The notes under the pieces: model-generated
What the model was told of the DNA's origin: nothing
Seen by the model: only the letters and a program-made list of their open reading frames with translations
Database searches by the model: none
In this document: in pieces, positions 742 to 3,389 of the stretch
How positions within the stretch are numbered: position 1 is the first letter of the stretch
Layout of the letters: each line of letters begins with the position of its first letter
Origin: a virus
Taxonomy: Duplodnaviria; Heunggongvirae; Uroviricota; Caudoviricetes
Length of the DNA: 3,389 nt
Direction: 5' to 3' (one strand)
IMG/VR virus record: IMGVR_UViG_2693429642_000028
Made by a program: the position numbers and the translations under genes

Positions 742-770
742 AGTTTAGAAAAATGAACTTTTCAGGTCAA
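742..770 (-). promoter_or_regulatory. Candidate sigma70 promoter (minus strand) for the ORF starting at 643
   Basis: Minus-strand TTGACC (plus 765-770), a 17-nt spacer, then TAAACT (plus 742-747). Hexamer match only; no experimental support. Confidence 0.2.
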
Positions 771-854
771 TGTTTTTTTATCAAAACATTTTAAGCAGGC
801 AGCTGTTAAGCCATCACCACGATGGCATACAGTTAATCAAATAGATGAGGTCGG

Positions 855-1493
855 TTAAATATCTTGTTGAATTTTAAAGCATACGCCCAATATGCAAGAT
901 AGATCATCCAGCATAATTGAAGGGTAGCGAGGATTCGTGGGGACTAAAAGAATATCCGGCCCTTCTATCTCCAGTTTACGAATGACAGGTGTTGTGGTCC
1001 CTTTGGGTAAGGCAAGGACAATATTTCCTGGTTGTACGGTTCGATCGGGATCAACAAAAACTGTTGAACCATTTGGGATGGAAACTCCCCCACCAGATGT
1101 TGACATACTGTCACTCTCTAGAACAACTGCAAAGGTATTGGCCGGGATTTCTCCGACAAGCTGCACACAAGAGGTTATTGAGGAATTTTTCATATAATCA
1201 CTCCAGCTTGCTGCCTGCTGAAGTGATAGTAGCGGAACCGTTTTTATCGGCGGTAAAGATAGATCAAGCGAATCACCTGTATTTAACTCTCCTCCATTAA
1301 GAAGCCAATTTTCGTTTACTTTCAATATTTTTGCCAGTGAACTTATGTAACGCGAGGACGGCGCTCCTCCACCGTTCATCCATTGACTTACGGAGCCTTT
1401 TGATGCGCCAGTGGCATTGACAAGGTCTTTGCCTTTCAGGTTTAGCGCATGCATACGTTGGGTTATGCGTTCAGATATTGTTTGCTTGCTCAT
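855..1493 (-). CDS. CI/LexA-like prophage repressor: N-terminal XRE-type HTH plus C-terminal S24 (LexA-like) peptidase domain
   Basis: 212-aa ORF. The N-terminus carries an HTH-like segment (…GKDLVNATGASKGSVSQWMNG…). The C-terminus aligns by eye with lambda cI: ESDSM vs EGNSM (catalytic Ser), FVDPDRTVQPGNIV vs LVDPEQAVEPGDFC, VIRKLE vs FKKLIR (catalytic Lys), LVPTNPRYPSIM vs LQPLNPQYPMIP. It is divergent from the rightward early genes. No Shine-Dalgarno precedes the ATG. Confidence 0.93.
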   Translation of the reverse strand: MSKQTISERITQRMHALNLKGKDLVNATGASKGSVSQWMNGGGAPSSRYISSLAKILKVNENWLLNGGELNTGDSLDLSLPPIKTVPLLSLQQAASWSDYMKNSSITSCVQLVGEIPANTFAVVLESDSMSTSGGGVSIPNGSTVFVDPDRTVQPGNIVLALPKGTTTPVIRKLEIEGPDILLVPTNPRYPSIMLDDLSCILGVCFKIQQDI

Positions 1494-1556
1494 GTTTTGA
1501 TTTTAAAACACAGATGGTTTTGTTTCTTGACTTTCTTTGGTTTTGATTATTAAACT
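1493..1556. promoter_or_regulatory. Divergent immunity-region operator/promoter: three GTTTTG-initiated sites at 23-bp spacing, with PRM-like and PR-like promoter candidates
   Basis: GTTTTG occurs at 1494, 1517 and 1540, exactly 23 bp apart. Site 1493-1510 TGTTTTGATTTTAAAACA has 6-bp inverted arms (TGTTTT-N6-AAAACA). Site 1540-1555 GTTTTGATTATTAAAC is a close relative. A rightward -35 TTGACT lies at 1527-1532 with -10 candidates around 1548-1556. A leftward -10 TAAAAT (plus 1500-1505) sits 6 nt from the repressor ATG. Confidence 0.5.
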
Positions 1557-1584: not shown

Positions 1585-1827
1585 ATGAAAAAATCAGAAG
1601 TATTAGGCTATTTTGGCGGAGTTGTTAAAACAGCCGCAGCTCTAGGAACGTCAAAAACCACAGTCAGCATGTGGGGGGAAGAGGTTCCGTGGAAATGGGC
1701 GTTGCTAATTCAGGCAGTCACTGCCGGGGCGCTCAAATATGAGTTACACATACCGACGGTTGTCATTCCCGGTTCTGATCATAATCCGCCTTCTAACCAA
1801 GGGGGGATTCATGAAAATCAAGCATGA
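1585..1827 (+). CDS. Cro-like HTH early regulator (YdaS-like)
   Basis: MKKSEVLGYFGGVVKTAAALGTSKTTVSMWGEEVPWKW… has a Cro/CI-type HTH signature (AAALGTSKTTVSMW). GGAG lies 7 nt upstream of the ATG at 1585. It is the first gene transcribed divergently from the repressor. The track ORF starts further upstream (1537, and in-frame 1573), but those ATGs lack an RBS. Confidence 0.8.
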   Translation: MKKSEVLGYFGGVVKTAAALGTSKTTVSMWGEEVPWKWALLIQAVTAGALKYELHIPTVVIPGSDHNPPSNQGGIHENQA

Positions 1828-2236
1828 ACACATCCGCATGGCGATGAATGCCTGGGCGCGTCCTGATGGCGAAAAAGTTCCGGCAGCTGGAATAACCCAG
1901 GCTTATTTTGAGTTGGGTATGACGTTTCCTGAACTGTACGACGACAGCCATCCGGAAGCCCTGGCTCGCAATACCCAGAAAATTTTCCGCTGGATAGAGA
2001 AAGACACCCCTGATGCAGTTGAAAAAATTCAGGCGTTGTTACCAGCTATCGAAAAAGCAATGCCACCTCTGCTGGTGGCCCGAATGCGCAGTCATAGCTC
2101 AGCCTATTTTCGGGAACTAGTGGAGACGCGGGAGCGACTGGTGAGAGACGCTGATGATTTTGTCGCAGTGGCAATCGCCGGTTTCAATCAGATGAACCGT
2201 GGTGGCCCGGCAGGAAATGCTGTGGCAGTGCATTGA
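1811..2236 (+). CDS. YdaT-like early regulatory protein (reported functional analogue of CII), ~141 aa
   Basis: Start ATG at 1811 is preceded by a strong SD (AAGGGGGG) and overlaps the Cro-like stop by 17 nt. The N-terminus MKIKHEHI… and the ~140-aa size match my recollection of the YdaT family, which follows a Cro-like YdaS gene in Rac/CP-933P-type prophages. Family membership was not verified by search. Confidence 0.75.
   Translation: MKIKHEHIRMAMNAWARPDGEKVPAAGITQAYFELGMTFPELYDDSHPEALARNTQKIFRWIEKDTPDAVEKIQALLPAIEKAMPPLLVARMRSHSSAYFRELVETRERLVRDADDFVAVAIAGFNQMNRGGPAGNAVAVH
2071..2078 (+). other. Chi octamer GCTGGTGG
   Basis: Exact match to the E. coli Chi recombination hotspot sequence on the plus strand, inside the YdaT-like CDS. 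A single occurrence may be chance. Confidence 0.7.
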
Positions 2237-2306: not shown

Positions 2307-3389
2307 ATGGCTAACGCCTGGCTCAGATTATGGCATGACATGCCAAATGACCCTAAGTGGCGAACAATTGCCAGAGTGTCAGGGCAGCCAATTGCAACAG
2401 TGATGGCAGTGTATATCCACCTCCTGGTGAGCGCGTCACGAAATGTCACGCGAGGTCACATTGATGTCACGACAGAAGATTTGGCAAGTGCGCTCGACGT
2501 GACAGAAGAGGTAATTGATTCAATTTTGCAGACGATGCAGGGGCGGGTACTTGATGGTGATTTAATCACTGGATGGGAAAAACGCCAGGTGCTTAAAGAG
2601 GACAACGGCAATATTTCGCAAACCGCAAAATCTCCTGCAGAGCGCAAGAGGGCGCAGCGAGAGAGGGAAAGAAAGCGGGAACAAAATGGCGATTGTCACG
2701 GCGCGTCACGAAATGTCACGCACATGTCACGACGAGTCACGACAGATAAAGATACAGATAAAGATACAGATAAAGATACAGATCAAGAAGATCAAAACAC
2801 TATGGTCCATGGCGTAAAAAACGCCACGAACCAGGCAGGGGATGTTCAGACCGTCAATCTTGGTCAGCCAGCAGGCACGACACCGGAAGCCGATTCAGCG
2901 TATGCGCTGAAAGCCGATTCGGGCGCTGTGCAGCAGGTGATGACCGCAAGGCCGGAGCAATCACACCAACTGCAGCAGCCCGAAGCCGATTCCGCCATTC
3001 AGCGGGAAGCCGATCGGGTAGTCCCGGAAAACACCGGGCAGTCTGTGGGACGAGTGGATTATCCGGATGTGTTCGAACAGGTCTGGCGGGAGTACCCGTT
3101 GCGTGCCGGAGCAAACCCGAAGAAATCCGCTTTCAGTGCCTGGAAGGCCAGATTACGCGAGGGGGTGCCACCAGAAGCCATGCTGGATGGCGTGAGGCGT
3201 TACGCAAGATACTTGGCGGCTACCGGGAAAACGGGAACGGAATTTGTTCAGCGAGCGACGACGTTTTTTGGACCGGACCGGAATTTTGAGAACCCCTGGT
3301 TGCTCCCGGTAAGCGGCACGAACAACCAGCGTTGTGTGAATCATATTTCTGAACCGGATAACGAAATTCCGCCGGGCTTCAGGGGGTAA
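2307..3389 (+). CDS. Phage replication initiation protein (lambda-O-like replisome organizer), complete, 360 aa from ATG 2307
   Basis: SD AGAGGTGAG lies just upstream of ATG 2307 (the track begins at in-frame GTG 2301). The N-terminus MANAWLRLWHDMPNDPKWRTIARVSG… resembles the N-terminal DNA-binding domain of phage replication initiators. The middle is a charged low-complexity linker (…ERKRAQRERERKREQ…TDKDTDKDTDKDTD…). The C-terminal domain carries DYPDVFEQVWREYP…AFSAWKARL. Position after Cro/CII-like genes fits the lambdoid O slot. Stop TAA at 3387-3389. Confidence 0.85.
   Translation: MANAWLRLWHDMPNDPKWRTIARVSGQPIATVMAVYIHLLVSASRNVTRGHIDVTTEDLASALDVTEEVIDSILQTMQGRVLDGDLITGWEKRQVLKEDNGNISQTAKSPAERKRAQRERERKREQNGDCHGASRNVTHMSRRVTTDKDTDKDTDKDTDQEDQNTMVHGVKNATNQAGDVQTVNLGQPAGTTPEADSAYALKADSGAVQQVMTARPEQSHQLQQPEADSAIQREADRVVPENTGQSVGRVDYPDVFEQVWREYPLRAGANPKKSAFSAWKARLREGVPPEAMLDGVRRYARYLAATGKTGTEFVQRATTFFGPDRNFENPWLLPVSGTNNQRCVNHISEPDNEIPPGFRG
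2431..2471 (+). repeat. Iteron cluster 1: four GTCAC(G/A) repeats at 10-11-bp phasing inside the replication gene
   Basis: GTCACG at 2435, 2445 and 2466, and GTCACA at 2455. The 21-mer GCGCGTCACGAAATGTCACGC (2431-2451) is identical to 2701-2721. An inverted copy CGTGAC lies at 2498-2503. Confidence 0.6.
2695..2746 (+). repeat. Iteron cluster 2: five GTCACG repeats at 10-11-bp phasing
   Basis: GTCACG at 2695, 2705, 2715, 2726 and 2736 (spacings 10, 10, 11, 10). It is immediately followed by the A-rich tandem repeat. The last unit GTCACGACAGA is shared with the end of cluster 1 (2466-2476). Confidence 0.65.
2742..2789 (+). repeat. 12-bp direct tandem repeat ACAGATAAAGAT: three perfect copies plus a degenerate fourth (ACAGATCAAGAA)
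   Basis: Read directly: perfect copies at 2742-2753, 2754-2765 and 2766-2777, degenerate copy at 2778-2789. In frame it encodes (TDKD)n in the linker of the replication protein. Two GATC sites at 2782-2785 and 2790-2793. Confidence 0.9.

Follow-up and report, generated by a model that had tools for sequence, protein, structure and literature searches.

The closest experimental precedent for the probable leaderless repressor mRNA of the locus described here is prophage CP-933P of E. coli O157:H7 (Jurenas et al. 2021, PMC8630535). Its PRM transcript was mapped by 5' RACE to the A of the paaR2 start codon, and N-terminal sequencing combined with intact mass spectrometry confirmed translation from that AUG (PMC8630535). 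In E. coli K-12, dRNA-seq detected only five leaderless mRNAs, three of which come from the prophage repressor genes dicA (Qin), racR (Rac) and ymfK (e14) (PMC4681348). The leaderless nature of racR was also seen by primer extension (PMC9638921), and the cI mRNA of PY54 was found to be leaderless by RACE (PMC4488713). Experiments have shown a leaderless message for lambda cI as well, so that the cases already known include lambda, CP-933P, Qin, Rac, e14 and PY54.

The stretch of DNA analysed here (3389 bp, hereafter the window) comes from a lambdoid prophage of E. coli and constitutes its immunity region. The region is widespread: more than 700 complete E. coli genomes, out of 5426, contain at least 80% of the window, and the whole stretch between positions 700 and 2300 is found in three phage records. 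Strains with this region include UTI89, APEC O1 and IHE3034 (protein accessions ABE06946.1, ABJ00675.1 and ADE89892.1) as well as ATCC 11775. The genes follow the order ydfA-like, repressor, cro, ydaT and replication gene. The ydfA-like gene (407-643, leftward) encodes a DUF1391 protein, and the repressor gene (855..1493, minus strand) encodes a protein of 212 aa of the cI/C2/LexA type. Divergent from the latter lie a cro-like gene (1585..1827, plus strand; Pfam P22_Cro), which has the Shine-Dalgarno (SD) sequence GGAG at 1575-1578, ydaT, a cII analogue (1811..2236, plus strand), and a rightward replisome-organizer gene (2307-3389). In a related genome, the region is flanked by dicB-ydfD-ydfC-ydfB-ydfA on one side and by replication genes on the other, so that the repressor occupies the position of dicA in Qin of K-12. 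The end of an IS1 element fills positions 1-330, and matches in other genomes begin at 331/333; this IS1, 0.5 kb away in the window, interrupts ydfB. The prophage is cryptic in many of its host strains. No Rfam RNA family was detected in the window. The sequences of the operator, the promoter and the N-terminus were also looked for in the full text of the searchable literature, with no match, and a search of the literature for dRNA-seq of E. coli strains carrying the prophage yielded no usable study.

The repressor combines an N-terminal helix-turn-helix (HTH) domain (Pfam HTH_3, E = 1.7e-4, 22.0 bits, slightly below the 23.0-bit cut-off) with a C-terminal Peptidase_S24 domain (E = 2e-13), which is the architecture of phage repressors of the cI/C2/LexA type. 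An alignment with the lambda repressor structure 3bdn spans residues 13-204, and the match to lambda cI itself is weak (phmmer E = 3.8e-10). In the pairwise alignment, VQAGMF of lambda pairs with QQAASW of the repressor, placing Ala-Ala, not Ala-Gly, at the position of the self-cleavage site in the lambda linker; these residues are invariant among relatives.

CP-933P resembles the window in its family context, with the dicB-ydfC side, a cro-like gene, ydaT and replication genes, and the two YdaT proteins are 84% identical. The intergenic region is 91 bp long in the window and 97 bp in CP-933P. The regulators themselves differ: PaaR2, which consists of an HTH only and is followed by a toxin-antitoxin pair, and YdaS have no detectable similarity to the repressor and Cro of the window. 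The paaR2 promoter, GATAAT-TACCAC-ATG with a 3/6 -35 at 17 bp, has the same layout as that of the window. The operators of CP-933P also differ, being GTTTAGTAA repeats that precede the -10 and do not cover it.

Putative promoter and start codon of the repressor gene

On the minus strand, the sequence preceding the repressor gene reads ...CTGTGTTTTAAAATCAAAAC-ATG. It contains a -10 hexamer of a putative PRM-like promoter, TAAAAT (1500..1505, minus strand; 5/6 to TATAAT), that ends 6 nt before the ATG, just as a preliminary description of this DNA had stated. The intervening spacer is exactly 6 nt, CAAAAC (1499..1494). When the last T of the hexamer is taken as -7, the A of the ATG (1493) becomes +1 and the C before it -1. 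Among the seven repressor promoters compared, this -10 is the nearest to consensus, tied at 5/6 with GATAAT of CP-933P. The poor -35 noted in the same description is also present, as the candidate AAGAAA (1523..1528, minus strand; 3/6 at 17-bp spacing), which lies inside the operator-like site R2 and overlaps the -35 hexamer of the cro promoter by 2 bp. No TGn extended -10 was found upstream of TAAAAT. A consensus promoter scan with a threshold of 9/12 did not call the PRM-like promoter because its -35 matches at only 3/6 positions and an extended -10 is missing; the PRM promoters of lambda and CP-933P, at 8/12 each by hexamer counts, would also fall below this threshold. A second minus-strand -10-like hexamer, AATAAT (1551..1546), is located inside R1, 52 nt upstream, with an equally poor -35 (3/6), and a leader that began from it would have no SD. 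It may conceivably serve as a minor start.

Comparison of the 22 nt upstream of the repressor ATG with the 3' end of 16S rRNA gave no SD match, which upholds the earlier claim that such a sequence is absent. The best duplex amounted to -1.6 kcal/mol, against -5.6 for cro, -11.0 for ydaT and -10.1 for the replication gene in the same window. Twenty annotated neighbouring genes had a median of -6.8, and only one of them had a duplex weaker than -2. The predicted mRNA begins AUGAGCA, and its first 30 nt have a minimum free energy of 0.0 kcal/mol, with 48% A after the AUG. In a 60-nt fold, the probabilities that the A, U and G of the start codon are unpaired were 1.00, 0.96 and 0.70.

The frequency of such a -10 arrangement was estimated by shuffling the 91-nt intergenic region 20,000 times with preserved dinucleotides. 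In these shuffles, a hexamer with at least 5/6 matches, including A2 and T6, occurred at a gap of 6 in 0.3% and at a gap of 5-8 in 1.1%. Applied to all ATGs of a related 15-kb locus, the same criterion returned 0.6% (gap 6) and 1.5% (gap 5-8). The arrangement of TAAAAT, 6 nt and ATG is unlikely to have arisen by chance. Among 87 related loci of this immunity type, no variation was seen in the hexamer, the 6-nt gap or the ATG. Because TAAAAT sits inside an operator-like palindrome, its conservation is not independent evidence for a promoter and may reflect protein binding instead of promoter function.

These features, together with the CP-933P precedent, make it probable that the repressor has a leaderless or near-leaderless maintenance transcript. 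In a lysogen, sigma-70 RNA polymerase would use TAAAAT (1505..1500) plus the poor -35, and transcription would begin at the A of the repressor start codon (1493) or no more than 1-2 nt from it. An mRNA of this kind would have neither a 5' UTR nor an SD, and translation would depend on recognition of the 5'-terminal AUG, on an unstructured and A-rich 5' end, by a ribosome with fMet-tRNA. A different view would be that the prophage is decayed and silent, that its repressor gene is not expressed from here, and that the arrangement is a coincidence in an AT-rich operator region. Many carriers are indeed cryptic, Qin/Rac-like prophages, and the IS1 inside ydfB lies only 0.5 kb away in the window. 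Nevertheless, such a coincidence is very improbable, given a chance probability of ~0.3-1%, an intact open reading frame (ORF) with a pattern of purifying selection, and the continued expression of repressors from leaderless mRNAs in Qin, Rac, e14 and CP-933P, which are cryptic prophages too.

The leaderless reading presupposes that ATG 1493 is the true start, and database calls conflict on this point. RefSeq/PGAP gives a 112-aa product from M101, one phage record gives 199 aa from M14 and others give 212 aa, and each of the three forms is deposited on ~1000 or more contigs. If the annotated start were wrong and the real one were M14 (1454) or M101 (1193), there would be no leaderless mRNA; the preliminary description had itself named an alternative in-frame start as a result that would overturn its interpretation. 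A start upstream of ATG 1493 was rejected, since an in-frame TAA (1505..1503) four codons upstream leaves no room for a longer ORF and makes the ATG (1491..1493, minus strand) the first start after that stop. Downstream of it, codons 2-13 are constrained. Compared with relatives of 84-90% protein identity, they show 3-6 synonymous and 1 non-synonymous codon differences, distributed over codon positions 1/2/3 as 0/1/4-7, a pattern that matches the rest of the gene, and in codons 14-100, too, substitutions favour third positions as they do in the remainder.

The two shorter forms are also difficult to reconcile with the protein. The repressor aligns over residues 1-69 with the same residues of P22 C2 and over residues 6-67 with residues 2-62 of the 434 repressor, so that translation from M14 would lose the first helix of the HTH domain. 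Nor is M14 preceded by an SD (anti-SD duplex +0.4); in the homologue P0005 it is conserved, the change being H15N. M101 is preceded by a GGAG SD (-6.5 kcal/mol), which probably accounts for the 112-aa call of PGAP, but a start there would remove the entire DNA-binding domain. The 212-aa ORF, the product of which is predicted to begin MSKQT, is unbroken in 87/87 loci examined, and its start codon is AUG, neither GUG nor UUG, and is invariant in the 87 loci. The upstream TAA, the codon pattern and the collinear N-terminus favour ATG 1493 as the true start of the repressor, and a real start at M14 or M101 is highly unlikely despite the number of contigs that carry the shorter forms.

Operator-like sites and possible autoregulation

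Three copies of an operator-like 16-mer lie at a 23-bp period between the divergent repressor and cro genes. R3, GTTTTAAAATCAAAAC on the minus strand (1494..1509), is a palindrome with 5-bp arms centred at -8.5 from the ATG; it spans the -10 and +1 and abuts the repressor ATG. R2, AGTCAAGAAACAAAAC on the minus strand (1517..1532, centre -31.5), is the weakest copy and contains the -35 of a PR-like promoter for cro (TTGACT, 18 bp, TAAACT; 1527..1556, plus strand). R1, GTTTAATAATCAAAAC on the minus strand (1540..1555, centre -54.5), overlaps the spacer and -10 of PR. The 16-mer pattern has three matches in the window, a number reached by 0 of 200 shuffles. In relatives, sites R1-R3 are invariant and the spacers between them vary. 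An OL-like operator copy of the 16-mer, GTTTTTTTATCAAAAC (772..787), adjoins a leftward PL-like promoter (TTGACC at 770..765, 17 bp, TAAACT at 747..742).

The region shares with lambda PRM/cI an arrangement of divergent PR and PRM promoters, here putative, with three operators or operator-like sites at a 23-bp period and a weak -35. The lambda sequence TAGATT-TAACGT-ATG (-35 4/6) has the same 6-nt gap as TAAAAT-CAAAAC-ATG of the window, the lambda mRNA and the predicted one both begin AUGAGCA, and both repressors consist of an HTH plus S24. The relation of R1 and R2 to the -10 and -35 of PR, which they overlap, is much like that of OR1 and OR2 in lambda. The two systems differ in that the upstream region of lambda cI has an SD-like score of -6.0 as opposed to -1.6 here, no GGUGAU-type SD-like element for PRE transcripts precedes the repressor ATG, Cro is of the P22_Cro family, and cII is replaced by YdaT. 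The likeness to lambda cI that had been proposed earlier holds in that the layout of -10, 6 nt and ATG is identical, while the operator positions differ. The centres of OR3, OR2 and OR1 are at -19, -42 and -66, and R3, R2 and R1 are 10-11 bp, or one helical turn, closer to the ATG. As a result, R2 covers the -35 and R3 the -10 and +1, whereas OR3 of lambda lies over the -35/-10 spacer.

This geometry bears directly on regulation. The preliminary description had taken the poor -35 to imply activation by bound repressor, a suggestion that the positions at -8.5/-31.5/-54.5, compared with -19/-42/-66 in lambda, do not bear out. Lambda-like activation appears doubtful because R2, centred at -31.5 from the predicted +1, covers the weak -35 instead of abutting it near -42, the position from which a repressor can touch sigma region 4. 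The earlier interpretation is upheld in part: its (near-)leaderless expression is well supported by indirect evidence, from sequence features and analogy, while its lambda-like activation finds no support in the operator geometry. Stimulation of the repressor promoter by low levels of repressor, through some other contact or by relief of competition from PR, is possible by analogy with CP-933P, the PRM of which is stimulated ~4-fold by low PaaR2 and repressed at high levels (PMC8630535). Binding of Cro, or of excess repressor, to the R3 palindrome over the -10 and +1 would be expected to shut the promoter off, and R1 and R2 would cover PR. The compressed geometry of these operator-like sites would make the locus a convenient comparison case for PRM-type autoregulation in which OR2 does not have its lambda-like position.

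A probable YdaT site and a probable second route to repressor mRNA

In CP-933P, YdaT recognises the operator TTGATT-N6-AATCAA (PMC9986795) and activates a leftward PRE promoter at a cro/ydaT-type junction (PMC8630535). A probable YdaT operator, GGGATTCATGAAAATCAA (1804..1821), is located at the cro/ydaT junction of the window and is identical to the CP-933P site, TTGATTCATGAAAATCAA, at 16/18 positions. The block containing this site is conserved across all loci compared. By analogy, the site likely marks a PRE-type leftward promoter for a repressor transcript with a long leader, and such a transcript, also without an SD, probably exists here too. Since a PRE-type transcript is probable, some of the repressor may derive from mRNA that is not leaderless. 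The PRE-type route would complement, and not replace, the leaderless maintenance transcript.

A stronger version of this idea is that the repressor is made mainly from leadered transcripts, arising at the YdaT-activated PRE-type promoter of the cro/ydaT junction or at another upstream leftward promoter. The ribosome would then start at an internal, SD-less AUG by an S1-dependent route, the SD-independent translation being aided by the A-rich, unstructured upstream sequence, and TAAAAT would be merely a part of the operator. Its position within the R3 palindrome fits such a view, as do the conservation of the YdaT site (16/18) and of the 5' region of ydaT with CP-933P and the activation of PRE933P by YdaT in that prophage (PMC8630535, PMC9986795). 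The consensus scan also matched a leftward TTAACA-18-AATACT inside cro; this candidate was rejected as the main promoter because its -10 is not conserved and reads AAAACT in relatives. Moreover, PRE-type promoters serve establishment, not maintenance, and an internal AUG with an SD match of -1.6 kcal/mol would translate poorly in E. coli. In CP-933P, which has the same overall design, the maintenance start maps to the ATG despite the presence of PRE. We therefore regard leadered transcripts as an unlikely main source of the repressor, bearing in mind that the leadered and leaderless routes are not mutually exclusive.

A further possibility concerns the logic of the switch as a whole. The lambda PRE transcript carries a GGUGAU-type SD-like element for cI. 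At the locus studied here, no transcript would carry an SD for the repressor and the operators are one helical turn closer to the ATG, and for these reasons the switch could operate in a way of its own, in which the repressor would be wholly dependent on initiation at a 5'-terminal AUG (70S-type), the promoter would be governed by occlusion only and YdaT would have an antisense role. With respect to the promoter, control would come from occlusion, with R3 over the -10/+1 and R2 over the -35, and from competition with PR, with no activator contact. With respect to YdaT, leftward transcription would act mainly as antisense interference against cro and would not supply translatable repressor mRNA. 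Taken jointly, this combination of features is rather improbable.

Distribution of the layout among phage repressors

The c2-cro regions of P22 and phage 21 provide a comparison in which the proteins are homologous. The N-terminus of the repressor is collinear with theirs from residue 1 (28% identity), Cro belongs to the same P22_Cro family, and the cro leader and SD are similar. As in the window, the last operator of the P22-type region abuts the repressor ATG and contains a -10-like hexamer; the P22 operators were recognised by their half-site consensus ATTTAAGA. In P22, the -10-like TAAGAT ends 9 nt before the ATG, from which a leader of 2-3 nt is predicted. P22 differs in having an intergenic region 11 bp shorter, an unrelated operator sequence and c1 (cII-type) instead of YdaT. 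Among the K-12 prophages, dicA is alike in that the repressor adjoins ydfA-ydfB-ydfC-dicB and is divergent from a cro-like gene. The dicA, racR and ymfK genes differ in encoding other repressor proteins, with DicA and RacR consisting of an HTH only, and in having weaker -10 boxes at other gaps (5-9 nt).

We then considered how far the layout extends in the repressor family. Homologue searches that returned proteins of at least 73% identity, or viral-contig loci of 99-100% identity, were unable to test the geometry across diverged operators because the relatives were too similar, and a tblastn survey of phage records was used instead. This yielded 221 relatives, of which 218 were below 60% identity, and 14 representative loci with 24-31% identity, belonging to ~8 immunity types, were sampled. 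In 11 of the 14 loci, the ATG that corresponds to the repressor start is preceded, at a gap of 6-9 nt, by a -10-like hexamer (at least 4/6, with A2 and T6; base rate 8.5%), and an SD is usually missing. These loci comprise the P22/21/Hafnia/Erwinia type, phage L, 733R5, Klebsiella P18-100, Vibrio VaK, Oslo and Lys8385Vzw/YeP3. One member of the survey, Cronobacter ENT39118, has a strong SD instead. As judged from these sequences, the sharing of the design by distant members means that a -10 close to the ATG is a habit of the family and not a peculiarity of this locus.

Another leaderless lambdoid prophage repressor adds little to the concept, as the feature is recurring and documented. The probable leaderless start offers an explanation for the inconsistent and often truncated records of a repressor that is very common in E. 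coli prophages, as in the RefSeq form of 112 aa, which is without the DNA-binding domain; gene callers that require a ribosome-binding site lead to mis-annotation of the switch regulator. Our survey suggests that the true starts of cI/C2-type repressor genes can be recognised by a -10 box located ~6-9 nt ahead of an ATG without an SD.

Repressor start codons on record

Public records carry three starts for the single repressor gene (855–1493, minus strand), which give products of 212, 199 (from M14) and 112 residues (from M101), and each of these forms is found in approximately 1000 contigs or more. The RefSeq/PGAP choice is the 112-residue form, which is without the HTH domain and is annotated, for example, at positions 6523–6861 of the related locus L001. 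The in-frame methionine codon M101 has a GGAG Shine-Dalgarno sequence (−6.5 kcal/mol) that probably draws gene callers to it, which would account for this start in the records. Among 87 related loci of the same immunity type, position 1498 (A or G) is the sole variable base in R3, the operator-like 16-mer abutting the repressor ATG, and in the 6-nt gap between the −10 element and the ATG. The gap accordingly reads CAAAAC or CGAAAC, and within this set the variation is limited to the diverged lineages (84–90% identical in repressor protein).

Promoters and operators

Within 1523–1532, the −35 hexamer of the rightward PR (TTGACT, 1527–1532) shares 2 bp with that of the putative leftward promoter of the repressor gene (AAGAAA, 1528..1523), so that RNA polymerase can probably not bind both promoters simultaneously. 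At the equivalent position, CP-933P and P22 share the motif AGTCAAG with the window.

The operator 16-mer has a fourth copy, GTTTTTTTATCAAAAC (772–787), which adjoins a leftward promoter (TTGACC-17-TAAACT, 770..742). The region 742–787, in which a single clear operator copy was found, is likely OL/PL, driving ydfA-ydfB-ydfC-dicB. An IS1 end with an IS1F-type transposase C-terminus occupies 1–330, its terminal inverted repeat ending at 330, and interrupts a ydfB-like gene (277–405); in most other genomes, the match to the window starts only at 331/333.

The YdaT operator of the O157:H7 prophage CP-933P has been defined experimentally as TTGATT-N6-AATCAA (PMC9986795). A candidate counterpart, GGGATTCATGAAAATCAA (1804–1821), extends across the ydaT start codon; it agrees with the CP-933P operator at 16 of 18 positions, and one of its half-sites, GGGATT, is degraded. 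The match suggests a PRE-type leftward promoter at the cro/ydaT junction, and YdaT would possibly bind this variant of the site more weakly.

Candidate self-cleavage site of the repressor

Lambda cI cleaves itself at an Ala-Gly site within VQAGMF. In a single pairwise alignment, QQAASW of the window repressor (residues 92–96; ~1207–1218, minus strand) lies opposite this segment, so that the site reads Ala-Ala rather than Ala-Gly, and these residues do not vary among the relatives. Judged from sequence, RecA-stimulated cleavage of the window repressor may be altered or slow.
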